Positions 395 to 14,486 of a DNA stretch of 14,486 bases are shown in pieces. Position 1 is the first letter of the stretch, and each line of letters begins with the position of its first letter. Below the pieces are notes generated by a model. It searched no databases and was not told the DNA's origin. It saw only the letters and a program-made list of their open reading frames with translations. The translations under genes and the position numbers were made by a program. The stretch lies in contig CAZTZE010000064.1 of NCBI GenBank assembly GCA_964618215.1, forward strand, positions 1-14,486, read 5' to 3'. This DNA is from an uncultured Chloroflexus sp. (lineage in GTDB: Bacteria > Chloroflexota > Anaerolineae > Anaerolineales > Villigracilaceae).

Positions 395-437
395 TGTATA
401 ATAAATAGTTGTACCAACTTACATATTCAACGGAGGT
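395..437 (+). promoter_or_regulatory. Promoter and RBS for the downstream membrane-protein gene: TG-extended -10 'TGTATAAT' at 395-402 with no convincing -35, and SD 'GGAGGT' at 432-437, 6 nt before the ATG at 444
   Basis: Read directly from the sequence: TATAAT hexamer at 397-402 preceded by TG, and GGAGGT with 6-nt spacing to the ATG. The lack of a good -35 is typical of extended -10 promoters. Confidence 0.45.
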
Positions 438-443
438 CGCCTG

Positions 444-1451
444 ATGAAGATTCTTGAGTACATTAAGAGACCAGTTGTTGCTGCTGTGCTTGCCGGTGTA
501 GCGGGGATTCTTCTGGGACTGATCTGGGGTTGGGGGATCCAGCCAGTGAAGTGGAAAGATGCTCCGCCATCTATGCTGCATGTTGTTTATCAAGAAGACT
601 ACCTGCGGATGGCAATCGACTCCTACGGGATAAACGGTGACACCGCGCTGGCCCTCAAACGCTATCAGGCGCTGGGGTCAAACGGGCATGCGGTTCTGTT
701 GACCATTCAGAGAAACCCGGGGAAACAAAATCCAGCCACGATCATAAACTTCTCAAGCATTGTACAACCAGCCGGCGGCGTCGTCATCCCTACCCCCGGC
801 GAAACGCCAGCAAAACCCACTACTGGCAATCTACTCGTGATTTACGGGCTTATCGCTTTTGGAGTTATTGTCTTGGCAGTCGTGGGTTATGGGCTGTTCA
901 AGTTCTTGCGCCCGATGTTGGGGCGAGGCAGCGGTGAAGCGACCCCGGCTCAACAAGCGCGCCGCCTCAGCCGGCAGGCCGAGGTGACTGATTACACGGG
1001 GAGAGGTCAAGAGACCCCCATCGCCCAGTTTGTTACGACCTATGTGCTTGGTGACGACCTGTTCGACGACTCCTTTGGCATCGACTCTGCCTCTGGAGAA
1101 TTTTTGGGCGAGTGTGGCATTGGCATCTCGGAAACCATCGGCGTGGGGGATCCCAAGAAAGTAACTGCCTTTGAAGTTTGGATGTTCGATAAAAATGATA
1201 TCCAGACTGTGACCAAGGTCTTGATGAGTTCACACGCTTTCAATGATGTGGCTACCTTCCAACGCCTGGAAGCCAAAGGCGAGCCGATCCTGGTTGAGCG
1301 CGGCAAACAGGTGGTGCTGGAAACAGCCGCGCTGCAATTGGTGGCGACAATCTCGGATGTTGAATACGGTCGTGGCGCACTCCCGGATAGCAGCTTCTTC
1401 GAGCGCGTGACGCTGGAATTGGCCATCTGGCCGAAGATTACAGCCGGGTAA
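444..1451 (+). CDS. Hypothetical membrane protein with two predicted TM helices (residues ~12-33 and ~131-152) and a C-terminal cytoplasmic domain of about 180 aa with no recognised family
   Basis: 335-aa ORF with a strong RBS. It has two hydrophobic stretches (VVAAVLAGVAGILLGLIWGWGI and LLVIYGLIAFGVIVLAVVGYGLF) and a terminator-like hairpin downstream. I recognise no motif in it. Confidence 0.7.
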   Translation: MKILEYIKRPVVAAVLAGVAGILLGLIWGWGIQPVKWKDAPPSMLHVVYQEDYLRMAIDSYGINGDTALALKRYQALGSNGHAVLLTIQRNPGKQNPATIINFSSIVQPAGGVVIPTPGETPAKPTTGNLLVIYGLIAFGVIVLAVVGYGLFKFLRPMLGRGSGEATPAQQARRLSRQAEVTDYTGRGQETPIAQFVTTYVLGDDLFDDSFGIDSASGEFLGECGIGISETIGVGDPKKVTAFEVWMFDKNDIQTVTKVLMSSHAFNDVATFQRLEAKGEPILVERGKQVVLETAALQLVATISDVEYGRGALPDSSFFERVTLELAIWPKITAG

Positions 1452-1452
1452 G

Positions 1453-1474
1453 CCTTCGGCGTCAGCGCCGAAGG
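1453..1474 (+). terminator. GC-rich hairpin (9-bp stem CCTTCGGCG/CGCCGAAGG, loop TCAG) 2 nt after the stop of the 444-1451 gene, with no U-tract
   Basis: Perfect inverted repeat seen directly in the sequence. The sequence that follows is not T-rich, so this may be a stabilising 3' hairpin rather than an intrinsic terminator. Confidence 0.4.
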
Positions 1475-1480
1475 TCTACT

Positions 1481-1529
1481 CGATAAAAAACTCGATATTG
1501 AAAAGCCCGACTCTCTTGAGAGTCGGGCT
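1481..1529 (-). terminator. Rho-independent terminator for greA, probably bidirectional: perfect 12-bp inverted repeat AGCCCGACTCTC/GAGAGTCGGGCT at 1504-1529, followed on the minus strand by the T-rich run TTTTCAATATCGAGTTTTTTATCG
   Basis: The hairpin lies 22 nt downstream of the greA stop (1551) on the minus strand, and the tract at 1481-1503 is T-rich on that strand. On the + strand the same hairpin is followed by TCTTCG, a weak U-tract, consistent with convergent genes sharing one terminator. Confidence 0.7.
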
Positions 1530-1550
1530 TCTTCGTGGCTGAAATGTACG

Positions 1551-2033
1551 TTATTCAATTTTCAGGATTTTCAACTTGATCTTTCCGCCCGGTGTTTCAG
1601 CCTCGACCACTTCGCCGACGCGGTGATCGAGTAAGGCGCGACCAATGGGGGATTCATTTGATATCTTTCCGTTGCGCGGATCGGCTTCTTTCGCGCCCAC
1701 CAGATAATAAATTTCGGGCGGGAAATCTTCTTCCCGAAGGCCTACCGGTTGAATAATCACCCGTGTTCCGACGGATACCCTGTCTTTGGAGATGGAATTT
1801 TCTTCGACGACGATCGCATATTGCAGGGTGTATTCCAGTTCCTGAATGCGGCCTTCGAGAAAGCCCTGGTCCTCTTTGGCTTTGTGATAGTCAGCGTTCT
1901 CTGAGAGATCGCCCATTTGGATGGCGGAGCGCAGGCGTTTAGATAACGCCAGGCGGGCCGGGCCTGTTAGCTCTGCCAGTTCAGCTTTTATTTTTACAGC
2001 GCCTTCGGCGGTCAAGAAGATATCGTTTGCCAT
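1551..2033 (-). CDS. greA: Transcription elongation factor GreA (transcript cleavage factor)
   Basis: From the internal Met, 'MANDIFLTAEGAVKIKAELAELT...' aligns along its full length with GreA. It has the N-terminal coiled-coil with acidic tip residues 'DLSENADYHKAKEDQGF' and a C-terminal FKBP-like domain ending '...TPGGKIKLKILKIE'. That start gives 160 aa, typical for GreA. The ORF-track start at 2081 adds 16 residues (MNIPNSSFQLKNLRDT) that would overlap the dgt stop, and an AGGGA sits upstream of the internal ATG. Start coordinates are accurate to about one codon. Confidence 0.9.
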   Translation of the reverse strand: MANDIFLTAEGAVKIKAELAELTGPARLALSKRLRSAIQMGDLSENADYHKAKEDQGFLEGRIQELEYTLQYAIVVEENSISKDRVSVGTRVIIQPVGLREEDFPPEIYYLVGAKEADPRNGKISNESPIGRALLDHRVGEVVEAETPGGKIKLKILKIE

Positions 2034-2040
2034 AGTGTCC

Positions 2041-3192
2041 CTAAGGTTTTTCAGTTGAAACGAAGAGTTTGGTATGTTCATCCACCGCGTAACGGTCGGT
2101 CATCCCGGCGATGTAATCGCAGATGGTCCGCTCCAGGCCGCGTTTGTCAATCCACATTTGGACGTGGTCGGGGAGAATGGCCGGCTCGAGATGATAAGCA
2201 TTGAAAAGGTCGCTGAGGATCCGTTCGGCTTTGGTTTGCATGCGGACAACACGGTAATGGCGATAGAGTTTGGCGTACAACAGGTCTTTCAATTCCCGGT
2301 TGCGCCGCTGCATGTCTTCGCTGAATCCGATGAGATTAAGGGATAGTTTTTGGACATCCAGCGCGGATCTCACCCCGCTTTCGCGCAGGCGTGCATCAGT
2401 CGCCTCGACCAGATCGGTCACTTCCAGCCCGACCAGATGGCGGATCATGCGGTGGCGTTCCATATCCACTAAAGTGTAAGCGCGCCATTTGAAGGTTTCG
2501 ACGAGGATCTCCCAGAGGGCAACGCTATTCAGCGTTTGGGGTGTGATCATCCCCGAGCGCAGGCCGTCATCGAGATCGTGAGTGGTGTAGGCCAGTTCAT
2601 CGGCAACATTGGCGATCTGCGTTTCCAGGTTGCCGCGCAAGTCAGGGTTGAAGTCGCGCGCATCCGAGATATCGTAATCGGATTCATGCTTGACAATGCC
2701 CTCGCGCGTTTCCCAGGTCAGGTTTAGCCCGGGGAACTCGGGGTAACGCTGTTCTAGTTCGGTGACGATGCGCAGGGATTGCTTGTTGTGATCGAAACCG
2801 CCGTAATCTTTCATCAAGCGGGCCAGGGTGACTTCGCCTGAATGTCCAAAAGGCGAGTGACCCAGGTCGTGCGCCAGGCAGATGGTCTCGACCAAGTCTT
2901 CGTTGGCGCCCAGGGCGCGGGCGATGGTGCGGCCAATTTGCGCCACTTCCAGCGTGTGCGTCAGGCGGGTGCGGAAGTAATCGCCTTCGTAGTTGATGAA
3001 GACCTGTGTCTTGTATTCAAGGCGGCGAAAAGCGGTGGTGTGGAGGATGCGGTCACGGTCGCGCTGAAAAGCGGTGCGATAATCCGGCTCATTGTCCAGG
3101 TAGGCGCGGCCTTTCGAATCCTTGCTGCGCATACCATACGGCGCAAGGCTGCGGTCTTCAATTTCTTCGAGTTGTTGGCGTGAGAAGAACAT
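2041..3192 (-). CDS. dgt: dGTP triphosphohydrolase-like HD-domain phosphohydrolase (Dgt family)
   Basis: Carries the Dgt family hallmarks: 'FQRDRDRILHTTAFRRLEYKTQVF' and the HD motif region 'THTLEVAQIGR...CLAHDLGHSPFGHSGE'. At 383 aa the length is typical. Only 7 nt separate its stop from the greA start, so the two are probably co-transcribed. Confidence 0.9.
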   Translation of the reverse strand: MFFSRQQLEEIEDRSLAPYGMRSKDSKGRAYLDNEPDYRTAFQRDRDRILHTTAFRRLEYKTQVFINYEGDYFRTRLTHTLEVAQIGRTIARALGANEDLVETICLAHDLGHSPFGHSGEVTLARLMKDYGGFDHNKQSLRIVTELEQRYPEFPGLNLTWETREGIVKHESDYDISDARDFNPDLRGNLETQIANVADELAYTTHDLDDGLRSGMITPQTLNSVALWEILVETFKWRAYTLVDMERHRMIRHLVGLEVTDLVEATDARLRESGVRSALDVQKLSLNLIGFSEDMQRRNRELKDLLYAKLYRHYRVVRMQTKAERILSDLFNAYHLEPAILPDHVQMWIDKRGLERTICDYIAGMTDRYAVDEHTKLFVSTEKP

Positions 3193-3200
3193 GGTGGTGA

Positions 3201-3263
3201 ATGGCAGATGGCAAATGGCGAATGGCAGATGGCGGATGGCGGATGGCGGATGGCGGATGGCGG
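3201..3263. repeat. Heptanucleotide microsatellite: nine tandem copies of ATGGCRR on the + strand (CCGCCAT/CYGCCAT on the minus strand), plus a degenerate tenth copy, ATGGTGG, that contains the dgt start codon
   Basis: Read directly: ATGGCAG ATGGCAA ATGGCGA ATGGCAG ATGGCGG x4 ATGGGCA. The array sits between the IPK stop (3306) and the dgt start (3192), so on the minus strand it occupies positions -9 to -71 of the dgt 5' leader. Confidence 0.9.
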
Positions 3264-3280
3264 ATGGGCAAAGTGAGATG

Positions 3281-3310
3281 AGTCTAATCTACACGACGGG
3301 GGATGTCAAC
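3281..3310 (-). promoter_or_regulatory. Putative sigma70-type promoter for dgt on the minus strand: -35 TTGACA (3310 to 3305, overlapping the IPK stop codon), 18-nt spacer, -10 TAGACT (3286 to 3281)
   Basis: Found by reading the reverse complement of 3264-3320. The -35 hexamer is a perfect match and the spacing is correct, but the -10 is only a 4/6 match. Confidence 0.35.
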
Positions 3311-4103
3311 GCCGAATGAGGGTGCCGATACCTTCGCCGAGCAAGGCGCGTTGTACGTTACTATTCTCTTCGCCGGAGAAGATGCTCACTTCCAGACCCG
3401 CAACCTGTTCCACGAGCCGGAGCATTTGCTTGACCTTGTCCCTCATCCCACCGGTCACGTCCAAGCCTGCCGCTGCGACCATACCCGCGCTAAAAGAACC
3501 AAAATTCTTCGGCGTGATCAGATTGACGAGTTTGCTCCGTGCCGGGAAGTCTGCCCAGACGCCTTTTTCCAGCCCGGCCAGGAGGATGCGCTGTGGATGG
3601 AGATGGGATGCGAGTGTAAAGAACAAATCTTCTGTGGAAAGGATGGTCCCGTTGAGGGTCGCGTCGAAGGCAACGTCACCAAAAATCACCGGCAGGATGC
3701 CGGCTTCGAGCGCGTTTTGCAGCGGTTGAAGATACCAGTCTTCGATTGTCCCAGCCTTCGCCTGGCTTGCAGCCGAGGGAGGGAAGCTAATGGCAGGGAT
3801 ATTCGCATTATGCAGCGCATCCATGACCAATCTATTCAACGCCGAGGCTTGATACCAGACCTCGGCGAAACCCCTCCAATCTTCGGCCTCCCATTTTGAA
3901 TTGACCGGCCAGTTTTGGCTGGCCGCCGCGTGACCGAAGGAGCCGGAGCCATGTCCCAGAACCAGACGCAGGTGCGGGTCGAGGCGACGGACGGCGGCGA
4001 TTTGAGCCGCCAGTTCAGCCAGTTTATCCAGGCGGGGTGTATAGGGGCGTGTTTTGTCGGTGATCAGCGATCCGCCGAGCTTCAGGAAAGTGAGCTTCAT
4101 CAT
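3306..4103 (-). CDS. Isopentenyl phosphate kinase (amino-acid kinase family; alternative/archaeal-type mevalonate pathway)
   Basis: From the internal Met pair, 'MMKLTFLKLGGSLITDK...' and '...LVLGHGSGSFGH' match the IPK signatures (K-L-G-G-S nucleotide-binding N-terminus and the conserved His of the GxGSFGH motif). This start gives 265 aa. The ORF track extends 95 residues further upstream to 4388; that extension is a low-complexity stretch with a non-coding look and it overlaps the divergent promoter, so I take 4103 or 4100 as the start. Confidence 0.8.
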   Translation of the reverse strand: MMKLTFLKLGGSLITDKTRPYTPRLDKLAELAAQIAAVRRLDPHLRLVLGHGSGSFGHAAASQNWPVNSKWEAEDWRGFAEVWYQASALNRLVMDALHNANIPAISFPPSAASQAKAGTIEDWYLQPLQNALEAGILPVIFGDVAFDATLNGTILSTEDLFFTLASHLHPQRILLAGLEKGVWADFPARSKLVNLITPKNFGSFSAGMVAAAGLDVTGGMRDKVKQMLRLVEQVAGLEVSIFSGEENSNVQRALLGEGIGTLIRR

Positions 4104-4148
4104 GCCTGAAACTTTAGCACGTTCTGTGGATGGCGTCAAGAATGGGTG

Positions 4149-4157
4149 TGCTATAAT
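4149..4157 (+). promoter_or_regulatory. Extended -10 promoter element TGcTATAAT for the divergent membrane-protein gene; no good -35
   Basis: TGnTATAAT read directly, 27 nt upstream of the ATG at 4185, in the 81-nt divergent intergenic region between IPK and the 4185 gene. Confidence 0.5.
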
Positions 4158-4184
4158 TTGAGCGTCGCTTGGCCAAGAGAATTT

Positions 4185-5120
4185 ATGAAACTTGACGTTC
4201 ACGCTGCGGTCCAGACCGCCGTTGTCCTCGCCTTGATCGGATTTGTTCTCGGCATTTGGCTGGGAGTACGCGCCATCCGTGAGGGGCGGCGTATACCTTT
4301 CTTTCGTATCCGCCGGCAGCGCGTCTTGGGCGGCTGGCGGAGGATATTTTATTCGATCTTGCTGGGGGTTTTCGCGATTGTTCTGCAACGCTACACCGAA
4401 CCGGCGGTCTATCGTTTCTTCCCTCCGACCGTGGCTCCCTCCCGGACGGCGACGATCACCCTGACACCAACCATCACACTGACCCCTACCATCACGCTGA
4501 CGCCGACGATCACACTCACGCCGGCGGTCAGCTATACTCCTACGCTCACTCCGACCCCCTTCCTCCCGCTAGCCATCGAAGCCCGCTTCCAGAGTACAGT
4601 GACGCCCAACCCGGATGCGGTCTTTAGCCCGTTGAAGTTCGCCTACCGCATTCAGGATGGACAAGCGCTCAACCCCTCCACTGTTTTTCAGAATCCGGTT
4701 CGACACCTGTATGCCGCTTTTACCTACGACAAGATGCTGCCCGGCGTCCAATGGACAGCGCTTTGGTACCGGGATGGTAAACTGGTGCATTTTGAGACCA
4801 AACCCTGGGATGGCGCAATCGGCGGTTATGGTTTTACCGATTGGAACCCGCCCGCCGAGGAATGGCTGCCAGGGAACTACAGCGTGCAAATCTTTGTTGG
4901 TGTGGACTGGAAAGTCGTCGGCGGATTCATCGTCCAGGGTGACCCTCCAACCTCGACGCTCACCTTGACCCCCAGCCTGTCGCCGACGCCGACACTGACG
5001 CGCACCCCGAGCCGCACCCCCACTCCCTCAAAAACTCCCACGGCAACCTGGACGCCGATCCCATCCAGAACGCCTCGTCCGAGCGATACCCGTTGGCCGT
5101 CCCAAACCCCGACAAAATAA
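4185..5120 (+). CDS. Membrane-anchored (single N-terminal TM), presumably extracytoplasmic protein: (TITLTP)x4 repeat linker, a central beta-rich domain of about 120 aa, and a C-terminal Pro/Thr/Ser-rich tail
   Basis: 312-aa ORF from the first ATG; the track start at 4146 is a GTG sitting inside the -10 box. It has a hydrophobic helix AVVLALIGFVLGIWLGV. The repeat protein sequence is encoded by an 18-bp DNA tandem repeat. The tail reads LTPSLSPTPTLTRTPSRTPTPSKTPTATWTPIPSRTPRPS. I recognise no family. Confidence 0.65.
   Translation: MKLDVHAAVQTAVVLALIGFVLGIWLGVRAIREGRRIPFFRIRRQRVLGGWRRIFYSILLGVFAIVLQRYTEPAVYRFFPPTVAPSRTATITLTPTITLTPTITLTPTITLTPAVSYTPTLTPTPFLPLAIEARFQSTVTPNPDAVFSPLKFAYRIQDGQALNPSTVFQNPVRHLYAAFTYDKMLPGVQWTALWYRDGKLVHFETKPWDGAIGGYGFTDWNPPAEEWLPGNYSVQIFVGVDWKVVGGFIVQGDPPTSTLTLTPSLSPTPTLTRTPSRTPTPSKTPTATWTPIPSRTPRPSDTRWPSQTPTK
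4452..4523 (+). repeat. Four tandem 18-bp repeats (ACGATCACCCTGACACCA and variants) encoding TITLTP x4 inside the 4185-5120 CDS
   Basis: Read directly; the variation between copies is mostly synonymous or conservative. Confidence 0.85.
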
Positions 5121-5141
5121 TAAACTCGAGAGGAACCCTTC

Positions 5142-5627
5142 ATGGAGCAAAAAGCTTTCCAAGACTACTACCCGGATCATTTTGCCCATTGCTATGGCTG
5201 TGGGAAACTCAACGCATCCGGCCACCAAATAAAAAGTTATTGGGAAGGCGAAGAGTCGGTCTGCCGCTTCCTGCCGGAAGCCGAGCACACTTCCATCCCT
5301 GGTTACGTCTACGGCGGGCTGATCGCCTCGTTGATTGACTGTCACGGCACCGGGACGGCTGCCGCGGCCGCCTACCGCGCCGAGAAGCGCGCCATGGACA
5401 CTGAGCCAGCCTTCCGCTTTTTGACCGCTTCGCTGCATGTAGATTATCTGAAGCCCACGCCCCTGGGCGTGATACTGGAAGTGCGTGGAAGGGTAAAAGA
5501 AGTCAAAGGCCGCAAAGTGGTGATCGAGGCGACCGTCTCGGCGGAGGGTGTCGTCACGGCGCGCGGGGAGGTGGTCGCCGTTCAAGTCCCGGAGCATCTG
5601 ATAGAGGAATTGTTGCTGAAGGCCTAA
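5142..5627 (+). CDS. Hotdog-fold acyl-CoA thioesterase (PaaI/YbgC-like family)
   Basis: 161 aa. Contains 'GYVYGGLIASLIDCHGTGTAAAAA' and a C-terminal beta-rich region ('ILEVRGRVKEVKGRKVVIEATV') typical of PaaI-type hotdog thioesterases. SD GAGAGGA sits 6 nt before the ATG. Confidence 0.7.
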   Translation: MEQKAFQDYYPDHFAHCYGCGKLNASGHQIKSYWEGEESVCRFLPEAEHTSIPGYVYGGLIASLIDCHGTGTAAAAAYRAEKRAMDTEPAFRFLTASLHVDYLKPTPLGVILEVRGRVKEVKGRKVVIEATVSAEGVVTARGEVVAVQVPEHLIEELLLKA

Positions 5628-5924
5628 CCGGTAGATGTAATAAACCGCCAAGACACCAAGACGCCAAGAAGTTCTTTGAGTTTGCCACACTTGCACCCCG
5701 TTCGGGCCGGGAGCCCGCCGTGACAACGAATAAGGGGGCGAGACGGCCTGCCGCAAGTGCAGGTGAGAAAAGCCCCTTGGCGCATTGTGTACATCACTTG
5801 GCGCCTTTACCCTTCGGGTACGATGTGCGACTTGGCGGTGAATAGAATTCCACAATTGCGGATAATCTCTAATATCTGACTTTGGCCGCGATTTTATATT
5901 GCTCGCTCCCGAAGGCCTACTCGG

Positions 5925-6863
5925 TCAAAGGCCGGTGCTGTAAGCACATGCTATTCGTGCGCCCAGGCGGGCATTGTTGAGCAGTAGATCCAAATTGGCG
6001 CGCAGTGTCGCGCCGCCGGTCAATTCGCTCAGGCGTTGGAGCAGGAAAGGCGTGAGCGCCTGTCCGTAGATATTCCTCTGGCGCGCTTCCTGCCTGGCTT
6101 GCTGGATGACCCCTTCCACAGCCTGTCGGGGCAGGGCAGTCGCGGCGGGCGGGGGTTGGCAGACCAGGACGGCGCTCTTCAGCCCAAGCTCCCAGTGCGC
6201 CTTTGCAAAGGCAACCACTTCCTGGGACGTGTCGAGCCGCGCGCTGACCGGCAGTCCGCTCTCGCGGGAATAGAAGGCGGGAAATTCATCCGTCTGGTAG
6301 CCGATGACCGGCACCCCCATCGTTTCCAGGTATTCCAGCGTAGCCGGCAGATCCAAGATGGCCTTCGCCCCCGCGCAGACGACGATCATGGGCGTATCGG
6401 CCAGCGCAGGAAGATCGGTGGAAATATCCAATGTCTCTACCTCGTGCACGCCGCCGATCCCGCCGGTGGCAAAGACCTTGATCCCGGCTTTGTGCGCGGC
6501 GAACATCGTCCCTGCAACGGTCGTACCGCCGGATTCCTGCTTGACGATAGCGGTGGCAAAATCCCGACGGCTGATCTTGCGCACGTTTTCTGCGTTCGCC
6601 AGTTGCTCCAATTGCGCGTCGGTCAGCCCGACGTGGATTTTCCCATCCAGCACGGCGACAGTGGCAGGCGTCGCGCCGTTCTCGCGGACGACGCGCTCCA
6701 TCTCGCGCGCCAGTTGCAGGTTCTGCGGGCGCGGTAGTCCGTGCGTGATGACGGTCGATTCGAGGGCGACGGAGGGGAATCCTATGTCATGGGCATGGAG
6801 GAGAGAGGGGGATAAAAAAAAGGAAGGAGTAAAGTCTCTGGGATACAAGTCACCTGTTGTCAT
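5925..6863 (-). CDS. psuG: Pseudouridine-5'-phosphate glycosidase (IndA/PsuG family)
   Basis: 'SVALESTVITHGLPRPQNLQ...GATPATVAVLDGKIHVGLTDAQLEQLA...TTVAGTMFAAHKAGIKVFATGGIGGVH' is colinear with PsuG. The ATG at 6863 has a strong SD (AAGGTGGA) 4 nt upstream and lies inside the last codons of the upstream gene, which suggests translational coupling. The first ~30 residues (..SFFLSPSLL..) are low-complexity and encoded by a polypyrimidine tract, but there is no alternative in-frame ATG or GTG. Confidence 0.85.
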   Translation of the reverse strand: MTTGDLYPRDFTPSFFLSPSLLHAHDIGFPSVALESTVITHGLPRPQNLQLAREMERVVRENGATPATVAVLDGKIHVGLTDAQLEQLANAENVRKISRRDFATAIVKQESGGTTVAGTMFAAHKAGIKVFATGGIGGVHEVETLDISTDLPALADTPMIVVCAGAKAILDLPATLEYLETMGVPVIGYQTDEFPAFYSRESGLPVSARLDTSQEVVAFAKAHWELGLKSAVLVCQPPPAATALPRQAVEGVIQQARQEARQRNIYGQALTPFLLQRLSELTGGATLRANLDLLLNNARLGARIACAYSTGL

Positions 6864-7611
6864 CTATCCACCTTTGGATTGCGCGATCAATTGCCTCATT
6901 CCTGCTTATGGTCGGTTCTCTTTCGATTTCAAACGCGATTAATCTTTTGGAGAGATTAACCTCACCTTTGGCCATATTGAGTAGTACCTGGTAAGGTTCT
7001 TCTTTCGTTTCCGTAGGCCATGATGGAGGTGGCGATGGTTTAAATGGCGACTCTGGTGCAGGTTCTTCAGTCCCCAGTTGGCCGGGTGTAGATGGCGCAG
7101 AACGCCGGATAAAGTCCGGCAACCTGGCTAGTATCCAGTCCAACCGATTTAGCAGGAACTCGTGGCAGCGTTCACGATTTTCATATCGGCCTGTATGTTC
7201 TGAATCTTCTGCGATCCACTTGAGGATAGCTACAGCATTACGCAATTCATCACAACAATCTTCCTGACGGTTAGCGCCAAAATAAATGATACCCCGTATC
7301 CAGTGCGCCATCCCTCGATCCCACTCTTTCGTAATATTAAGGATGTCAAATCCGACTAAAGCTTCGTCAATACATTGCACCGCCTCTGGCCATTTGTATA
7401 ATTCAGCGTAAGCACAAGCCTGGAATAGAGAGAGATATGACTTCAATATCAATTTTCTGGCGGAGCGGTGTTTTTCTTCTTCCAGCTCCGCGATGATCTG
7501 TTCTGCGCCAGTTTCGCTTGTGCAGGTGGTCAGTACTCTTTGGCGCATTCTCAGCAAAGGTTCTTCCTCAATTCTCAGACTTCTAACAATATCCGCAAAT
7601 TCCTCCCGCAT
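6850..7611 (-). CDS. Hypothetical two-domain protein: an N-terminal helical (TPR-like?) domain of about 165 aa, a Pro/Ser/Thr/Glu-rich linker, and a C-terminal module of about 47 aa; third gene of the AT-rich SPFH island
   Basis: 253 aa, with SD AAGGAGAA 6 nt before the ATG at 7611. Its stop, TGA at 6850-6852, overlaps the psuG start by 14 nt. Codon usage and GC match the two upstream SPFH genes rather than psuG. I recognise no family; the C-terminus (KRLIAFEIEREPTISRNEAIDRAIQRWI) has a beta-strand-plus-helix look. Confidence 0.6.
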   Translation of the reverse strand: MREEFADIVRSLRIEEEPLLRMRQRVLTTCTSETGAEQIIAELEEEKHRSARKLILKSYLSLFQACAYAELYKWPEAVQCIDEALVGFDILNITKEWDRGMAHWIRGIIYFGANRQEDCCDELRNAVAILKWIAEDSEHTGRYENRERCHEFLLNRLDWILARLPDFIRRSAPSTPGQLGTEEPAPESPFKPSPPPSWPTETKEEPYQVLLNMAKGEVNLSKRLIAFEIEREPTISRNEAIDRAIQRWIDDNR

Positions 7612-7649
7612 ATTTTATTCTCCTTCGAAAGTTCTCTTTTGAGAGGTCA

Positions 7650-8990
7650 CTAAAGCACTCTAAGTCTTTGAAGTGTAATCAGAGCTTCATCTGTCATATA
7701 AGACTGGACTAATGGATCCCCAATACTTTGATCGAGAATTCCCCCTAAATATAACAGGAGAGAATCGGGATCAGGCCCAATGCGGGCCAACTCCCTGGCT
7801 ATTGCCATGATCAGATTATTTTGTGCGTCTGCTCGCGCTTCCTCAAAGGCGCGAATCTGAAAAGCCTCCGCTGCTCCCCCTGTCCGAATGATGATACGCT
7901 GCTTTTCGGCCGCCCAATTGCGCAAACGTTGCTGTTTGACAGCCATGGGCATGCTCACATCCAAGATCTGCAGGCTGGTGGCTTGAATACCGCGACTCCG
8001 GAGGGCGTTATTTATATTACTACGGAGGTTGTTCCCAACCTGTGGAGAGAGTATTTGTCCAGCGCCTCTATCCGCTAGAAATAGTTCATCCAGAAGATGT
8101 CGAGATACATGGGCGGCGATGATGCCCCGCGCCATCCCCCACGCGCCGTCAACCCAATCCGAATCTTCAAGTGTGTCTTCAACCCGGTTATAGCGGGAAG
8201 CAGTGTATTCCACTGCGTGGCGCACAGCCAGCGGATCGAAAGGATAGACGAGTTTCTCAGAAGAGGATCTGAAGCTCGCCACCGTTCCTATTTGGTATAC
8301 CAGGCGCACCTTAATTTTGATTTTGATGCCGTCTTTTGTCCAGGCGTTGACATCTCCTGTTTTGATTTGTGGTTTCAAGTCCACCACTGCCTTGACAGTC
8401 TCATACCAATCCAGAAACGCTACAGGCATACCGGGGCCGACAACCCGCGAGAATTGATTCCCGCGTTCCAGATAAAGCGCATTCCCGTCCGTAATTATCA
8501 AGAGAGCCGGGCCGCCCAACCATTCTATCCAACAATTCTCCGGCTTTATTTTTCCATCCTGGATCAGCGCAAATGGGAAACTCCAGATACCATCTAATAC
8601 TGGCGGTAATGGAGGAACGCCAAGAAGACGTCTCCGGATCAAGGTGTGCGGTTTAAGTTTTAGTTCTTTGGGCGGTTTATAAAAATCTTTGCAGAAAATA
8701 GTTGAGATACGGATCGGGAGGATAAAAGAAAGAAGCCCGAATAAGATCGGCAATGCGATTAGCGTAATGCTTATGAGTGAAAACCAATTATTACTTGATA
8801 ATCCTTTGGAAACTATATTAAGCCAATCCCTGGCATCAAAAATATAAACAATATAAGCAAAGGAAATAAAGAGGCCGATAGATAATGGGGTGAATATCCA
8901 GAAGATGTTCTTGAGGGAATTCCATCGGGAACGCTCGCTAGTATATAAGCCCTGCCAGGTAGTTGGATAATTTGTGATTGGGGTTGGCAT
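7650..8990 (-). CDS. SPFH/band-7 domain membrane protein (stomatin/prohibitin/flotillin/HflK-C superfamily) with two N-terminal TM helices
   Basis: 446 aa. The TMs are IFWIFTPLSIGLFISFAYIVYIF and FSLISITLIALPILFGLLSFILPI. The SPFH core, 'ALLIITDGNALYLERGNQFSRVVGPGMPVAFLDWYETVKAVVDLKPQIKTGDVNAWTKDGIKIKIKVRLVYQI', fits the conserved E-R/GPG/VDLR-Q/TKD/V-VD/Y-I-D pattern. It is followed by the Ala/Glu-rich helical region typical of the family ('IIIRTGGAAEAFQIRAFEEARADAQNNL'). The start ATG sits 5 nt after the upstream gene's stop, with SD AAGGA inside that gene. Confidence 0.75.
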   Translation of the reverse strand: MPTPITNYPTTWQGLYTSERSRWNSLKNIFWIFTPLSIGLFISFAYIVYIFDARDWLNIVSKGLSSNNWFSLISITLIALPILFGLLSFILPIRISTIFCKDFYKPPKELKLKPHTLIRRRLLGVPPLPPVLDGIWSFPFALIQDGKIKPENCWIEWLGGPALLIITDGNALYLERGNQFSRVVGPGMPVAFLDWYETVKAVVDLKPQIKTGDVNAWTKDGIKIKIKVRLVYQIGTVASFRSSSEKLVYPFDPLAVRHAVEYTASRYNRVEDTLEDSDWVDGAWGMARGIIAAHVSRHLLDELFLADRGAGQILSPQVGNNLRSNINNALRSRGIQATSLQILDVSMPMAVKQQRLRNWAAEKQRIIIRTGGAAEAFQIRAFEEARADAQNNLIMAIARELARIGPDPDSLLLYLGGILDQSIGDPLVQSYMTDEALITLQRLRVL

Positions 8991-8995
8991 AACGA

Positions 8996-10753
8996 TCAGT
9001 CCTTGCTCATTTCAGATGGCATCCGCAGTCTGATCTCACGGATATACTGACGAAACCATTCGTTTAACTTGCTGCCTTCCGCTTGCTGTCGGATCAACTC
9101 CTCCAGCGCCCCAATGAAATGCATGCCAACCACATAGCGGCTGAACCCGAGGGTAGGATTAAGCGTTCTTGCTTGATTTAAGCCATCAACAATTCTGTTG
9201 AGTAGAACAGAATGAGCGTAGGCACGCGCCCTTTGCCTCAGAAGTTCTGCATCCGCTTCTCCCTGGGCGTGTGCCTGAACGACTTCCTGCTCCCAGTCGG
9301 CGCACCAACTGGCAATTTGCTGGGTTCGCACTTTGTCTTCTTCGCCCGTTGTCTTCTCTGCGAAAATTAGATCTACGATCCGGCAAGTGTACAACCGTAT
9401 TCCCCATAGCTGAAGGCGATACCTGGCCTCAGTCTCGATCACACTTGCGATTTCATCAATCGAATTGACACCGCTTAGATCGTAATTCGGTCGCCATAAT
9501 TCGTCCAGCCGGTATTGGGATAACACGGTATTTGCCGTGTTTTCTATCTGGTAAACGACCCTTTCGTCCCAATATACTATCGGGCGTTTTGAATCATCGG
9601 ATGCAGGTTCCACCTCATCTTTGGACTTTACGCCGGTCGCAGCGAAAGTGGCGCGTATCCGCACTCGAGAAAAAGGAAAGCTCCCCTCGCTGTAATCCGG
9701 AATCATTCCCCTCCTCAAGGTTGGATTCTCATGACATAATTGGTTATACAATCTGTGCGGCCATCTATCCTTATCCACAGCAAACGCCGCGAAAAAGATT
9801 ACTTTCAGAGGAACGCCGTCCTTCGAGACCGACCCAATCAAGGTGGTTCGCAGTTGTGTCCGTAGATCAATTACTTCCTGCGGGCGCTCGTAAGGACGTG
9901 TGAAAGTAACACCGGGATTACAGACACGAGCAAATTGTATGCCTGTAGTCAATCCGGCGACTTGATGAGAGCGTGTCCAAATCAAGCCAGGAACTCCATA
10001 AAGATTAAAGGCGCTCCCATCAATTCGTGTCTCGATTTTACGACCAGCATTGTCGCTTACTACGAGCAGGGGATACTGAAGTCCCCACATATACCAGCAA
10101 AGCACAAAGAACCGCTGCCATCGCTCGCCGAATATTTTCTCAACAACAGCTCTCCAGCGACTTTGCTTGGCTAAGTCAATACGCTCCTTTAAACGTTTAT
10201 CCTCTCCGTTAAAGGCAACATCCGGGTTTCTTATATAGCTAAAGAGGTTCTTGAAAACGTTTCCGGAAGCATCTGGATCAGATGCTGGAACGACCACGAC
10301 GGCTATGCGGTATATAGAATAATAGAACATTACCATAATAGGCAGTGATATGAATAACATACCTGACCAGCGATCTAACCACCAGCCAAAAAAAAGAATG
10401 CTGAGATGTCCCCACATTGAATAGATGCCCCGCCGCCCCCCATACTTGCGGCTTAGAAAATAGATTACAACGCTTGAACCTAGAAATAATACAATCCAGC
10501 GAAGGATAGGCGCCATTTCTAGTTTTGAAGCCCATGATGCAATCCATAGTGGAAGGTGCCAGATGAGTAATACAATGATTACTTCTTCGAAAAGAAATGT
10601 GACCCCCAGAAACAGACATCTTTGAAACCCCTCTTCGCGTATTGACCAGATGTAGAATATCGCAGCGCCGACGAGTACAAAAATGGCGACATATGGCAGA
10701 GCTGCGTCCAATGTGTCATTGAAGATGTCAATGGCCTTGATGATGACTTCCAT
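8996..10753 (-). CDS. Large polytopic SPFH/band-7 domain membrane protein: about 5-6 N-terminal TM helices, then the SPFH core, then an Ala/Glu-rich helical region
   Basis: 585 aa. Several hydrophobic helices occupy residues ~20-160, with one more (FFVLCWYMWGLQYPLLVV) immediately before the SPFH core 'GLTTGIQFARVCNPGVTFTRPYERPQEVIDLRTQLRTTLIGSVSKDGVPLKVIFFAAFAVDKD'. The C-terminal 'AHAQGEADAELLRQRARAYAHSVLL' matches the HflK/C and stomatin C-terminal motif. It is a paralogue of the downstream gene. Confidence 0.75.
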   Translation of the reverse strand: MEVIIKAIDIFNDTLDAALPYVAIFVLVGAAIFYIWSIREEGFQRCLFLGVTFLFEEVIIVLLIWHLPLWIASWASKLEMAPILRWIVLFLGSSVVIYFLSRKYGGRRGIYSMWGHLSILFFGWWLDRWSGMLFISLPIMVMFYYSIYRIAVVVVPASDPDASGNVFKNLFSYIRNPDVAFNGEDKRLKERIDLAKQSRWRAVVEKIFGERWQRFFVLCWYMWGLQYPLLVVSDNAGRKIETRIDGSAFNLYGVPGLIWTRSHQVAGLTTGIQFARVCNPGVTFTRPYERPQEVIDLRTQLRTTLIGSVSKDGVPLKVIFFAAFAVDKDRWPHRLYNQLCHENPTLRRGMIPDYSEGSFPFSRVRIRATFAATGVKSKDEVEPASDDSKRPIVYWDERVVYQIENTANTVLSQYRLDELWRPNYDLSGVNSIDEIASVIETEARYRLQLWGIRLYTCRIVDLIFAEKTTGEEDKVRTQQIASWCADWEQEVVQAHAQGEADAELLRQRARAYAHSVLLNRIVDGLNQARTLNPTLGFSRYVVGMHFIGALEELIRQQAEGSKLNEWFRQYIREIRLRMPSEMSKD

Positions 10754-10821
10754 TGTCAGTCTGATCTCCGCCTGGAATGTTTTTAGCTCTCCGGATATTT
10801 TCCGTTCGTTATTACAGGGTC

Positions 10822-10851
10822 AGTATATACTTTTATGCGCGGCTTTGTCAA
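10822..10851 (-). promoter_or_regulatory. Near-consensus sigma70-type promoter for the SPFH-psuG operon on the minus strand: -35 TTGACA (10851 to 10846), 18-nt spacer, -10 TATACT (10827 to 10822)
   Basis: Found by reading the reverse complement of 10800-10860. The -35 is perfect and the -10 is a 5/6 match. The predicted TSS lies about 60 nt upstream of the ATG at 10753. Confidence 0.5.
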
Positions 10852-11254
10852 GAACCCTTGCCGGGGGGTGTTGGGTAGCCAGCGCAAGGTTCAATAATCT
10901 TCGAAAACGCCGAAAGCCTTGCGTGCCGGGCAAATTTAACCGCGAAGAACGCCAAGTTCGCGAAGTTTTTCAAGGTTTCTTTGCGTTCTTTGCGCTCTTC
11001 GCGGTTCAAAAAATGCAGGCGCGCTAGCCACCACGGTTAAGTGCAGTCTTGCCCGTCTCCGAAAAAAGGCCTACATTAGACATTATCTGTAATAAAAGCT
11101 GAACGCTGATTCACGCTGCCTGCCCTGGCGGGCTAGGCCAGGGAAAACGCAGATTTTAAGAAGTTGAATCAGCATTTATCAGCGTCCAAATCAAGGTTTT
11201 ACTTATTACGAATAAAGTCCATTGACGAACTCTAAAATCGCGTCAAAAACCAGG

Positions 11255-12751
11255 TCACGAAAAATCGGACGGGGCGCGATCAAACCAGGGTTGAGCGCGC
11301 TCGAGCTGGCCGGCCAGTCGGAAGAGAGTGGCCTCGTCGCCAAAACGACCGACGAAGTGCATACCGATGGGCAGCCCGGCTTCATTCCAATACAGAGGCG
11401 CCGACATCGCTGGCTGGCCGCTTGCATTGAAGATTGGTGTATAGGGCATGAAATCGAATGTCTTGTTGGCCAAGGGCTTGATTATGCCAAGCGCATTCAG
11501 CAGCCAGGCAGCATTGAGCCGGCCGACCAGTCCCACCATGAACCGCTCTGCACCTGTGGGCTGCAACGAGCCTGTCAGCACAGGGGGTTGAGAGAGAGTC
11601 GGGGTCAGCAGGACGTCATAACCTTCGAAGAAGCGGCCCACCTCACGCGCCGAGGCCATTAGATAGTTCAATGCATTGGCGTATTTGCCGGCGCTGAAGG
11701 CCTGCCCCAGCAGAGCCAGCGCGCTTGTGCCAGTTTCGAAGTCAGCATAAGATGACTTGCGCCCGGCCAGGCCTGCGGCCCAATCAATCTCGTCGCGCGT
11801 CTCGGCCGCCACCATTGTCATAAATGCAATGGCAAACGCCTCTCTGTCAATCTGCGGCGCGGCTTCTACTAGTTCGTGGCCCAACTGCTCCAGCAAGTGA
11901 ACAGTGGCTTCCAACCCTTTCCGGCAATCTTCGTGGACAGCATGGCCGAGGAAAGGGTGCGCAGTGAAGGCGATGCACAGGCGGCCCGGCTCTGTGGTCA
12001 CTTCCTGCAAATAGGGGCGCTGCGGCGCTGGGGCATAGTAAGGCGCGCCTACATCCGGCCCGGCGATGGCGTCCAGCATGGCGGCGCTGTCGCGTACCGA
12101 GCGGGTGAGGACGTGTTCCTGGGCAAATCCGCGCCAGATATCGCCAACATCCGGACCCGTTGGAGTGCGGCCGCGGGTGGGCTTCAGTCCAAATATTCCA
12201 CAACAGGAGGCTGGGATACGGATTGACCCGCCTCCGTCGGCGCCGCCTGCCAGGGGTACCAGGCGGGCCGCCACAGCCGCCGCGGAGCCGCCGCTGGAAC
12301 CGCCGGGTGTCCGCGTCAGGTCCCATGGATTGTTGGTTGGGCCGAAAGCTTCAGGCTCAGTATAGGGCAGTAGGCTGAATTCAGGGACATTGGTCTTGCC
12401 GAGCAGGATAACGCCCGCAGCCCGGTAGCGGCGCACAATTTCACTGTCGTGCGGCTGGGGGATGTCCTTCAAGATGCGCGTCCCACAGCTCGTCGGCGCG
12501 CCTTTGACGGTAGCGTGCATGTCCTTTAGAAGGAAGGGCACACCCTTGAATGGCCCGTCGGGCAAGTCGCCTTTTGCCGCCGCGCGCGCCTGCGCATACA
12601 TTTTATAGATGACGGCATTGATCTTGGGATTATGCGCCTCAATGCGGCTGATCGCCTCTTCGATCACATCCGCGGCCGAGATCTGTTTTGTCTTCACCAG
12701 TTCGGCAAGGCCCAGACCATCGTACTTGTGGAATTCAGGGAAGGTGTTCAT
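11255..12751 (-). CDS. Amidase (amidase-signature family; GatA- or Asp-tRNA amidotransferase-like, or general amidase)
   Basis: Contains the AS-family signature '[13 protein letters not shown]', the catalytic Ser-cisSer-Lys context ('[13 protein letters not shown]', '[26 protein letters not shown]'), and other family-typical motifs ('GKTNVPEF', 'TNNPWDL'). The start at M18 (12751) has SD GAGGAG about 4 nt upstream; the longer ORF-track start at 12802 has no SD. Confidence 0.9.
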
Positions 12752-12849
12752 AGGCTCCTCTTGGAAATCCAGCTCGAAAGGGTTGCTCCCCGCTGGGGTC
12801 ATTGCCCGGCGGGACGCTTTATTTTAACGGTCAACGGCTTGGCTCAGCG

Positions 12850-14486
12850 GCAGCGGCGGGACTGGCGAGACGCCTAACCAATTATGCACCATTTCTGGCA
12901 AATCGCGCCTGCGCGGAGCGGCAGAGCCGCTGTCCGACTGGAGCCGGTGTTACTAGAATGTACCTGCGTTGGGGCGTGGCGGGTGGTATCCTTGGGCTGA
13001 CCGAGCACCGGGGATGCCAACCGGGGCAGGAGCATCCGGGCGGACCGACGCGGCCTATGGGAGAGAGAGTAGTCTCACCCCGAGTTGTTACTTGGTCGCC
13101 CGGTGGATTCTCGTCTGGGCCACGAGCCCGAATCGGTGTTTGCGACTTCTGCCCGAAAATCCACGCCCCAACCACAAGTTCAAGGAGAGTGTAGCATGGA
13201 AGATGAACAAAAAGCAAGTACCAATCGTTACATCGCCCTGGATATCCACAAGTATTATTCGGTGGTGGCCGGGGTGAACCGGGATGGGGAGGAGATCCTG
13301 CCGCCTTGCCGGGTGGAGCACCTGAACCTGGAGGACTGGCTGGGGAAGCACTTGCTGCCCAGCGACCGGGTGGTGATCGAATCGACGACCAACGCCTGGC
13401 ACGTGTATGACTTGCTGGAGCCGCTGGTGGCCGAAGTATTGGTGGCCAACCCGATCAAGGTGAAGCAGATTGCCTGTGCGCGGGTGAAGACCGACAATAA
13501 GGACACCTTGATCCTGGCGCGGCTCTTGGCTGCGAACCTGGTGCCGACGGTATGGGTGCCTCCGAAGCACGTGCGCGAACTGCGGCAATTCATCTCGCAC
13601 CGGCGGCGGTTGGCCAACATGCACACGCAAGTTGTGAACCGGATGCACAGTGTCGCACACCGGCACCATCTCAGTCACCCAAAAGGGAAGGATTTTCAGC
13701 CGAAGAACACAGGGTGGCAGCGGGATGAAAGTTTGTCCAGCCTGGAGAAGTTGCAATTGGAACTGGACATGGCAACGCGTGCGCACCTGGAAGAACAGAT
13801 GGAGCGGATGACGCGGGAGTTGGGGCGGATGAGCCACGAAGAGCCGTGGGCGAGCGACATGCTGTATCTGATGCAGATCCCCGGCTGTGGCGTGGTGACA
13901 GGCATGACGATCATGGCGGCCATTGGAGACATCACCCGCTTCGAGAACCCGAAAGCGTTGGCGAGTTATTCGGGACTGACGCCCGGGTTGGAGCAGAGCG
14001 GGGTGAAGGTGCGCGGCAAAGGGATCACGAAGGAAGGGCGGCGGGAGTTGCGCTGGGCGCTGGTGGAAGTGGCCTGGCGAGCAGTGAAGGCCGATCCGCA
14101 CTGGAAGCGGCTTTTCGAAGAACTGAAAAGACGCATGCACCCCAACCAGGCAATTGTGACCATCGCACATTACCTGCTGGTGGTAATCTGGTATGTGCTG
14201 ACAAAGCACGAACCCTACCGGCACTATTCACCGGAGCGGATCGCCTACAAGTACCTGACCTGGTCGTGGGCGCTGGACGAAGAGCAGCGGCAGGGAATGA
14301 CCCGCCCGCAGTTTGCGCGCTATTACCTGATGCGGCTGGGGATCGGGAACGATTTGAAACGTGTGGCCTTGAATCCGGAATTTCCGTACCGGTTGGCTTC
14401 TGTGGAGGAAGTCCTGGCGCTCAGGCCGGAGTTGCGGCCACCTGAGTAATCGGTAGTCTACTCTCTGGAAGAAACAAACAACCCCG
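12850..14486 (+). mobile_element. IS110-family insertion sequence, probably partial at the right end. The left-end coordinate is approximate; the right end lies at or beyond the window edge
   Basis: The element comprises a DEDD-type IS110 transposase gene preceded by a ~350-nt GC-rich structured non-coding region, which is the characteristic IS110 organisation; the family has no terminal inverted repeats. The boundaries cannot be fixed from sequence alone. Confidence 0.6.
13196..14449 (+). CDS. IS110-family transposase (DEDD/RuvC-like N-terminal domain plus C-terminal IS110-type domain)
   Basis: The N-terminal 'YIALDIHKYYSVVAG' is the family DxH motif equivalent to IGIDV(H/S)K. It has '...ARVKTDNKDTLILARLL' and the C-terminal 'IPGCGVVTGMTIMAAIGDITRFENPKALASYSGLTPGLEQSG' (IPGIG...AEIGDI.RF....L.AYAGL.P....SG). 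SD AAGGAGAG sits 6 nt before the ATG. The ORF-track start at 13085 is an upstream in-frame extension with no RBS. Confidence 0.9.
   Translation: MEDEQKASTNRYIALDIHKYYSVVAGVNRDGEEILPPCRVEHLNLEDWLGKHLLPSDRVVIESTTNAWHVYDLLEPLVAEVLVANPIKVKQIACARVKTDNKDTLILARLLAANLVPTVWVPPKHVRELRQFISHRRRLANMHTQVVNRMHSVAHRHHLSHPKGKDFQPKNTGWQRDESLSSLEKLQLELDMATRAHLEEQMERMTRELGRMSHEEPWASDMLYLMQIPGCGVVTGMTIMAAIGDITRFENPKALASYSGLTPGLEQSGVKVRGKGITKEGRRELRWALVEVAWRAVKADPHWKRLFEELKRRMHPNQAIVTIAHYLLVVIWYVLTKHEPYRHYSPERIAYKYLTWSWALDEEQRQGMTRPQFARYYLMRLGIGNDLKRVALNPEFPYRLASVEEVLALRPELRPPE

Follow-up and report, generated by a model that had tools for sequence, protein, structure and literature searches.

A three-gene SPFH cassette exchanged as a unit at a fixed site beside psuG in Anaerolineales

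Introduction

SPFH scaffolds are ubiquitous, and in bacteria they are poorly understood. To our knowledge, NfeD proteins and FtsH are the only well-established operon partners of these scaffolds, and every structurally characterised pair of SPFH paralogues that we know of forms an alternating ring or cage. Here we describe a cassette of three genes (A, B and C), two of which encode SPFH paralogues. It lies at positions 6850-11254 of a stretch of 14,486 nucleotides (nt) from an uncultured Chloroflexus sp., a member of the Villigracilaceae in the order Anaerolineales (GenBank assembly GCA_964618215.1, contig CAZTZE010000064.1, positions 1 to 14,486 of the forward strand). This whole stretch is referred to as the window.

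In the SPFH operons of the NfeD type, the scaffold is encoded together with a dedicated partner. The long NfeD protein PH1510 of Pyrococcus horikoshii is a Ser-Lys protease that cleaves the stomatin PH1511 (PMC3795559), and the cage of QmcA and YbbJ of E. coli is stated, in a passage of PMC13086221 that cites Tan 2024, to protrude into the cytoplasm. The classification of SPFH proteins from 2009 has NfeD partners only (PMC2636767), and in the eLife 2020 paper on conflict systems Band7-like domains appear only within vWA-MoxR systems. In the literature searched, neither an operon that combines SPFH with S24 or TPR proteins nor a cassette-like SPFH locus was found described. The cassette of the window had earlier been interpreted from its letters only (the sequence-only reading) as a horizontally acquired, AT-rich island inserted next to the psuG gene. 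The comparison with related loci that is presented below leads to a different interpretation.

Results

Three tightly packed genes in a low-GC tract

The three genes are encoded on the minus strand, where the six-frame list of open reading frames (ORFs) places gene A at 8996-10753, gene B at 7650-8990 and gene C at 6850-7611. Their products are a polytopic SPFH protein of 585 amino acids, an SPFH paralogue of 446 amino acids with two transmembrane (TM) segments and a soluble TPR-like protein of 253 amino acids, respectively. They are followed on the same strand by psuG (5925-6863), which encodes the pseudouridine-5'-phosphate glycosidase of the Indigoidine_A family (Pfam E=5e-120) and forms the conserved downstream flank. 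The three ORF lengths of the sequence-only reading were reproduced exactly, and the tight packing was seen in the junction sequences as a gap of 5 nt between A and B, a gap of 38 nt between B and C and an overlap of 14 nt between C and psuG. A Shine-Dalgarno-like sequence stands before each start (AAGGA, GAAGGAG and AAGGTGG), again in line with that reading. The overlap between C and psuG, however, involves two different reading frames. Therefore C is not fused in frame to psuG, as had been supposed.

The GC content is 0.474 between 6850 and 11254 and 0.577 in the remaining window. At third codon positions (GC3) it is 0.44-0.49 in the module genes and 0.55-0.75 in the flanking genes, psuG having a value of 0.73. 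The tetranucleotide profile is distinct as well, with correlations of 0.19-0.50 between island and flank and of 0.71-0.83 between flank and flank. The compositional contrast noticed earlier is real, but its size had been overestimated: it amounts to about 47% against about 58% rather than 45% against 60-65%. Nor does the tract end at 10753, because the low GC content continues through the 500-nt intergenic region upstream of gene A up to about 11254. On the GC and tetranucleotide profiles, the variable cassette (6850-11254, no strand assigned) comprises the three genes and their upstream regulatory region.

A compositional break of this kind could also result from a chimera made during assembly or binning. 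The window stems from a metagenome contig, and a related contig (L008) is apparently mis-binned. However, A, B and C are found again, 100% identical, in a Logan assembly (L002) that is independent of it, and the order of third gene and psuG is repeated in the related locus L061 and in dozens of metagenome-assembled genomes (MAGs). A chimera is the least credible of the explanations considered here.

The cassette occupies an ancestral site

The synteny survey covered one genome per GTDB species, which gave 51 loci, nearly all of Anaerolineales, and in addition five long contigs. In about 45 of the 51 species loci the order was a divergently oriented PHP phosphoesterase gene, A, B, the third gene, in part of them a PfkB-type psuK, and psuG. 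Beyond psuG the block continues with the genes of a 4HBT protein, a protein of 311 amino acids and an amino-acid kinase. The trio is thus syntenic across genomes, in a strictly kept order. Because this order is conserved in so many species, the link to psuG represents ancestral synteny. The sequence-only reading had suspected an artefact of insertion, which applies to the exact C/psuG junction in so far as this is allele-specific (see below) and not to the linkage itself.

The same reading implied that a foreign island had recently been inserted beside psuG and had captured it by accident. Such an event would agree with the distinct composition, with the presence of an IS110 transposase gene 2.3 kb upstream, with the rearranged upstream flank, from which PHP and FTHFS are absent and in which a different amidase is found, and with the allele-specific junction. 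It is contradicted by the A-B-third gene-psuG order in about 45 species loci across Anaerolineales and by the further order (third gene, psuG, 4HBT, 311-residue protein, amino-acid kinase, HD) that the window has in common with L061. No integrase, no tRNA and no direct repeats flanking the tract were found, and the absence of the latter two argues against a site-specific island. Moreover, AT-richness of the module is shared by nearly all genomes: its GC3 was lower than that of the flanks in 45 of 47 loci, with means of 0.553 and 0.702 (Wilcoxon p=5e-9, 44 loci). This means that AT-richness alone cannot date an insertion. A recent insertion is accordingly highly improbable, and the horizontal acquisition claimed before holds only in a modified sense, as the exchange of an allele at a fixed site.

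In many Anaerolineales a psuK (PfkB) gene separates the third gene from psuG; it is missing in the window and its clade. This psuK-less clade is the one nearest to the window (psuG 70-82% identical) and includes L016, L019, L022, L040, L046 and L061.

The three genes are exchanged as one unit

When pairwise identities were compared across loci, those of A and B varied together (Spearman 0.91). The coefficient was 0.07 for B with PHP, 0.39 for B with psuG and 0.67 for psuG with PHP; the third gene gave 0.37 with B and 0.09 with the flanks. On average the third gene was the most divergent (24% identity), followed by A and B (40-42%) and by the flanks (64%). The cassettes fall into six or more deep classes of alleles (<48% identity) that are scattered over the phylogeny of the flanks.

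The borders of the exchanged segment are visible in closely related pairs of loci. In L011 and L013 the PsuG proteins are 95% identical and the A and B proteins 36%. Their DNA is 83-92% identical on both sides of the cassette, as far as the start of A and once more beyond the end of the third gene, with no alignment in between. Similarly, L032 and L034 have flanks of 85-96% DNA identity and only patches of about 67% inside the cassette. Both psuG and psuK are outside the swapped segment in the close pairs. The proportion of synonymous differences (pS, Nei-Gojobori) in four close pairs was 0.23-0.45 in the flank genes and saturated, at 0.73-0.85, in A, B and the third gene. A saturated cassette next to unsaturated flanks cannot be explained by faster protein evolution in place. 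This shows that the cassette is an allele that has replaced a resident homologue at a fixed site, the three genes moving as one unit. Recombination within the conserved flanks, by which the unit is exchanged, accounts for the AT-richness, for the saturated pS beside near-identical flanks and for the remodelled psuG junction.

Rapid evolution in situ was also considered as the sole cause and was rejected, as saturation of synonymous sites is confined to the cassette.

An alternative would be that the module is tied to pseudouridine catabolism, for instance as a scaffold for nucleoside uptake that is co-regulated with psuK and psuG. Adjacency to psuG, often together with psuK, is kept in 30 or more loci, and in the window no terminator separates psuG from the third gene, which it overlaps, psuG probably being co-transcribed with the cassette. 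Yet psuG lies outside the exchanged segment, as does psuK, and both follow the flank phylogeny. Besides, copies of the module are present at other sites without psuG nearby (L012, L021, L029, L033, L048 and L055), and no transporter domain was detected in A. Little credence can be given to this alternative.

Some genomes carry, between the third gene and psuK/psuG, a second and very divergent SPFH-like pair of about 550 and 600-655 amino acids (L003, 12611-16253; also L011, L013, L024, L028, L041, L044 and L060). It is located outside the swapped segment, and its DNA is 90% identical between L011 and L013.

The cassette of the window and its junction with psuG

The closest relative of the window is L061, an Anaerolineales MAG (GCA_030018695.1). 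The flanks of the two are 91-96% identical in DNA and 90-97% in protein, with a pS of 0.13-0.27. The third protein of L061, which is of the short type (see below), is only 51-53% identical to C (pS 0.59, pN, the nonsynonymous counterpart, 0.29). From gene to gene the pS climbs in the direction of the cassette: 0.13 for HD, 0.15 for the amino-acid kinase, 0.18 for the 311-residue protein, 0.26 for 4HBT, 0.27 for psuG and 0.59 for C. Homology to the L061 DNA ends at position 6777 of the window, about 86 nt inside psuG, so that homology of the psuG product starts at residue 29. The junction between cassette and flank (6778-6863, minus strand), which consists of the 5' end of psuG with its first 28 codons or so and the overlap with the stop codon of C, is not conserved in L061, where 30 nt separate the third gene from psuG instead of the 14-nt overlap of the window. 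As judged from the sequences compared, the exact junction is allele-specific.

The PHP gene, which adjoins the cassette upstream, has an intermediate pS of 0.55-0.58 in both L011/L013 and L032/L034, against 0.23-0.36 in the downstream flanks. Together with the gradient between window and L061 this looks like a signature of linkage or hitch-hiking.

The nearest A and B alleles anywhere (L008 and L062) are only about 45% identical to those of the window. Between the window and L008 psuG is 79-82% identical with a pS of 0.44, and the pS of A, B and C is 0.72-0.82, A and B being saturated. L008 (PCSF01000211.1) is a contig of 4.9 kb that is labelled as part of a Desulfobacterales MAG and carries the Anaerolineales block; it is probably mis-binned.

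A and B are SPFH paralogues with unusual membrane anchors

Both proteins pass the gathering cutoff of the Pfam Band_7 family (23.6 bits), A with 27.2 and B with 29.5 bits, and they are related to each other (BLASTP, 22% identity over 275 amino acids, E=1e-10). The presence of two paralogous SPFH proteins in a tight three-gene operon, as proposed in the sequence-only reading, was thereby confirmed. In AlphaFold models, which were built from 27 and 29 homologues and reached a predicted local distance difference test score of 79 (B) and 75 (A), both proteins have an N-terminal helical membrane anchor, the SPFH alpha/beta fold, a long helix of about 55 residues and C-terminal helices. In A, TM helices within residues 1-157 are followed by a linker, the SPFH region (about 230-464), the long helix (474-531) and the C-terminal helices. 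Its anchor is modelled as four long helices over residues 2-154, which leaves room for 4-6 TM spans. The anchor of B is a two-helix membrane hairpin (about 18-53 and 67-104), after which come a beta-rich domain with the SPFH region (140-346) and the long helix (349-402). Of the TM counts given earlier, that of B (two) holds, and that of A is about 4-6 rather than 5-6; C has no TM helix. The statement that a long EA-repeat coiled coil is lacking is correct in that neither A nor B matches a flotillin domain in Pfam; both do possess the post-SPFH helix of some 55 residues that occurs in other SPFH proteins. Analysis of hydropathy and charge showed that the N-terminus of B is positive and that a strongly basic stretch follows its second TM segment. 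On these grounds the SPFH domain of B is predicted to be cytoplasmic.

With Foldseek, B matched stomatin, erlin, HflK/C, prohibitin and QmcA (E 6e-11 to 2e-9). More than 300 full-length homologues of B were found, almost all from Anaerolineales or from Chloroflexota metagenomes. The automatic annotation of JGI labels proteins of the B family 'HflC', but no NCBIfam family, the HflK and HflC models included, matched A or B at E<=0.1, and C was without an NCBIfam match as well. FtsH and HflX were absent from the window and from five long relatives, and NfeD was matched neither by C nor by the third genes of relatives, which match TPR and Peptidase_S24. The pair is therefore not an ordinary HflKC, and its distinction from HflK/HflC, flotillin and QmcA/YqiK had been drawn correctly from the letters of the window.

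Across the loci A and B are always adjacent, and the stop codon of the one and the start codon of the other frequently overlap, in keeping with coupled translation of the two at a fixed stoichiometry.

A third gene for a TPR-like protein, with an S24 domain in most alleles

In protein C, a Pro-rich linker (about 166-205) joins an N-terminal TPR-like helical domain (residues 1 to about 165) to a conserved helical motif of about 50 amino acids at the C-terminus (about 206-253), which has the form (..LL....G.....RLI..E.ER.P..SR.EAI.RAI.RW..DNR). It contains no hydrophobic segment. The first of these domains can be aligned to the corresponding end of the TPR and S24 proteins of relatives; in most loci the third gene encodes about 350 amino acids that comprise a TPR-like domain, a Pro-rich linker and a Peptidase_S24 domain. 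In 24 diverse S24 sequences of relatives, the columns G, S and M (G-x-S-M) and K (V-K-R) are invariant. A profile of these 24 sequences, when searched against the PDB, matched the C-terminal domain of LexA (E 3e-6), UmuD' and lambda cI, and hhalign aligned it to LexA with a probability of 92.5%, S119 and K156 included. The relationship to LexA and UmuD is visible only with this profile; a single-sequence phmmer search of the PDB with an S24-type third protein found designed TPRs only. Some 57 residues before the Ser a V-x-A-G-x-x-G motif is present, in which the A is invariant and the G next to it occurs in 17 of the 24 sequences; the alignment with LexA stops short of it.

Neither the S24 domain nor the Ser/Lys motif is present in the C protein of the window. 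A short form without S24 recurs in L055 and in four representative clusters of 247-255 amino acids, the short-form third proteins being those of L055, P0175, P0179, P0193, P0194 and P0170. The motif of about 50 amino acids, which is not in Pfam, is also found C-terminal to the S24 domain in proteins of 418-430 amino acids, and it occurs alone, duplicated or on small TM-anchored proteins (P0204, P0214, P0221, P0239 and P0240). In these five and C of the window it takes the form (LL....GD...AERLI.YE..R.P..SR.E.I.RAI.RWERDNR). That a protease partner is lacking is true of this allele only; most alleles have a LexA/UmuD-like S24 domain on the third gene.

The possibility that C is a truncation artefact was ruled out, since several lineages have a short form that ends in this same motif. 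In L007 (9403-10065) the third gene is split into three short ORFs in different frames, A and B being intact; it is probably a pseudogene, or possibly the result of a sequencing error.

Copies associated with defence genes

A second copy of the module in Anaerolineales bacterium UBA5195 (L059 765-2816, the same as L033) has a TIR_2 domain (E 4e-24) in place of the first 140 or so residues of A. The B paralogue comes next, and a HerA-like ATPase of 1140 amino acids and a run of small ORFs lie beside the two. The TIR domain of this fusion (P0154) matches the TIR modules of the pAgo, retron, CBASS, TIR-TM and Thoeris defence models, and its HerA-like neighbour also matches defence models. Among the copies at non-canonical sites, that of L021 adjoins a type I restriction-modification system and that of L029 a transposase-like HTH protein. 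Taken from gene content as they are, the TIR fusion and the restriction-modification neighbour are few and weak hints at a role in conflict or defence.

In PADLOC-DB v2, A and C had no match, B had one insignificant match of its TM region (E 0.0099), and the homologues from L003, L005 and L008 were likewise without match. No known defence system was matched, and the anti-phage role that the sequence-only reading had raised is a hypothesis with circumstantial hints only in its favour.

On the opposite strand downstream of the module in L006 (10689-12361), response-regulator receiver domains are fused to TIR_2 and to SLFN/AlbA_2 domains. They adjoin a multi-GAF protein of 1250 amino acids, and the region is low in GC, too.

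The upstream region and the neighbouring genes of the window

A sigma-70-like promoter match (TTGACA-18-TATACT, 11 of 12 positions) is present on the minus strand at 10822-10851, about 68 nt upstream of the start of A, as noted in the sequence-only reading without a position. It is a consensus match only, for which the relevance of the consensus in Chloroflexota is assumed, and the region as a whole contains no more promoter-like sites than chance would give. Between this putative promoter and the stop codon of the amidase gene lies a very stable imperfect hairpin (10925-11020, minus strand) with arms of 31 nt at 10935-10965 and 10979-11009 (-40.8 kcal/mol, z=-5.5). No counterpart was seen in the other loci fetched; the hairpin may serve as a terminator or insulator. 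At the gathering threshold Rfam gave no match in the whole window.

The upstream flank (11255-14449) differs from that of relatives in that it contains an amidase gene and the IS110-family transposase gene (13085-14449, plus strand) instead of PHP and FTHFS. The amidase shares only about 31% identity with the one that belongs to the conserved block, its composition is native, and its gene separates the IS110 gene from the cassette. This suggests a rearrangement associated with an insertion sequence at the left border of the cassette.

On the other side, the window encodes the conserved protein of 311/324 amino acids of the syntenic block at 4146-5120 (plus strand). It has an N-terminal TM helix and Thr/Pro-rich 'TPTITL' repeats and no Pfam match. 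The gene is overlapped by an amino-acid-kinase ORF of 360 amino acids (3306-4388, minus strand), which is called as 265 amino acids on L001; the true start is probably near residue 96.

Discussion

The low-GC tract is best explained as the version, in the window, of a cassette of three genes that is exchanged as a unit at a fixed site, that would encode an SPFH scaffold with a TPR-like partner and whose diversification suggests a changing antagonist or partner. To this explanation as a whole we assign a probability of roughly 0.6. According to it, A and B would alternate in a hetero-oligomeric ring or cage at the cytoplasmic side of the membrane, in the manner of HflK/C, PHB1/2, erlin1/2 and flotillin1/2, and the third protein would dock on this assembly by means of its TPR domain. 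In alleles that bear S24, the third protein could be a Ser-Lys switch that cleaves itself or the SPFH proteins, analogous to the long NfeD/STOPP protease. In the allele of the window, C would act as an adaptor only. The turnover of alleles would then reflect selection, either diversifying or frequency-dependent, that is exerted by an antagonist or partner which itself changes, for example a phage, a toxin or a conflict related to the envelope or to kin. It is the cassette-like diversification that suggests a changing antagonist rather than an invariant housekeeping task.

Several points weigh against this explanation. The orientation of the SPFH domain of A is ambiguous, because its TM count is, and the hetero-oligomer of A and B is deduced from the fact that the two are paralogous, encoded side by side and co-varying. 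The apparent decoupling of distant pairs is inflated by rate heterogeneity and saturation, and the argument for replacement leans mainly on five close pairs. The V-x-A-G motif may be the site of self-cleavage, which is a guess from its position, and as the window allele has no S24 domain, the protease-switch mechanism cannot apply to it. Presence at one conserved locus in nearly every genome is atypical of defence systems. Finally, A, B and C had no matches in PHROGs, among IMG/VR viral contigs or in a tblastn search of GenBank phages, which removes a phage-borne origin. As to proximity to defence genes, the gene neighbourhoods showed the TIR/HerA copy and the restriction-modification system beside the L021 copy.

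Part of this evidence is what would be expected if the module were a vertically inherited housekeeping scaffold or quality-control system of the HflKC or QmcA-NfeD type, under weak constraint, expressed at a low level and subject to incidental allele exchange. Most sampled Anaerolineales have it at one conserved locus, its SPFH architecture is canonical, known defence families and phage-borne copies were not encountered, and where it is measurable the pN/pS of the cassette is about 0.1-0.5, i.e. each allele is under purifying selection. However, weak constraint alone is insufficient to produce saturated synonymous sites with sharp borders beside unsaturated flanks or six and more deep allele types that disregard the flank phylogeny. 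Furthermore, TIR-fused, restriction-modification-adjacent and HerA-like-adjacent copies exist, and neither an FtsH nor an NfeD partner is present. Although it is the most serious of the alternatives, a housekeeping role is considered unlikely.

The favoured explanation can be taken one step further. The module might be an undescribed membrane-anchored conflict system, active in anti-phage defence or abortive infection or in envelope or kin conflict, in which a cage holds a TPR adaptor and, in most alleles, a LexA-like switch. Perturbation of the membrane or of the cage would lead to cleavage or release, and an arms race would bring about the turnover of alleles, the AT-richness and the occasional fusion of an effector such as TIR. 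This extension is tentative and in itself doubtful. If diversification did arise from conflict with phages or competitors, it would connect SPFH cages with immunity or with the distinction of self from non-self, and S24 autoproteolysis would be found in a setting independent of RecA.

Irrespective of its function, the locus adds a third SPFH partnership to the known ones, that of two SPFH paralogues with a TPR/LexA-type Ser-Lys protein, in a lineage that is mostly uncultured. In the literature searched, its evolutionary behaviour is unreported for SPFH genes: the genes, which are always there, keep a fixed position, are hypervariable, are exchanged like a serotype cassette and have linked flank genes of raised divergence. 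A practical lesson is that a conspicuous AT-rich 'island' can be the swap of an allele at an ancestral locus and not a new insertion.

Variable cassettes at conserved sites are familiar from O-antigen and capsule loci, hsdS alleles and defence hotspots. The present locus resembles them in its low GC content, its deep alleles that depart from the species tree, its sharp breaks at the flanks and the raised divergence of linked flanks. It differs in that the same three homologous genes are always found, in nearly every genome, instead of alternative gene sets or presence and absence. LexA, UmuD and lambda cI, which belong to S24, share their catalytic domain with the C-terminal domain of the third protein in most alleles. 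In place of their DNA-binding N-terminus the third protein has a TPR-like domain; a link to RecA or the SOS response is not apparent, the cleavage site is putative, and C of the window lacks the S24 domain.

Among SPFH proteins, prohibitin (PHB1/2), erlin1/2, flotillin1/2 and stomatin are the best structural matches to A and B. The eukaryotic cages have the same succession of SPFH1-SPFH2, long wall helix and C-terminal cap, and their paralogue pairs alternate; A and B are 12-17% identical to them, have different anchors and are without the EA-rich flotillin domain. With HflK/HflC-FtsH the locus has in common two adjacent paralogous SPFH genes, for which an alternating cage would be expected by analogy. 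Unlike HflK/HflC, the pair has no NCBIfam match and no ftsH or hflX nearby, and the structural identity is 10-16%. HflK and HflC have a single TM segment and are on the periplasmic side, whereas B and A have two and about 4-6 TM segments, with a cytoplasmic SPFH domain predicted for B.

Closest in organisation are the operons of SPFH with NfeD/STOPP proteins (PH1511/PH1510, QmcA-YbbJ, YqiK-YqiJ and FloA/FloT-NfeD), in which a membrane SPFH scaffold is likewise encoded together with its partner, and the cytoplasmic orientation of the QmcA-YbbJ cage is the one predicted for B. The partner at the present locus lacks the OB-fold of NfeD, the ClpP-like fold and a TM segment, and is composed of TPR and S24 domains in most alleles or of a TPR domain and a short motif in the window. 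In contrast to these operons, the locus combines two SPFH paralogues that have polytopic and hairpin anchors, and it is hypervariable in the manner of a cassette.

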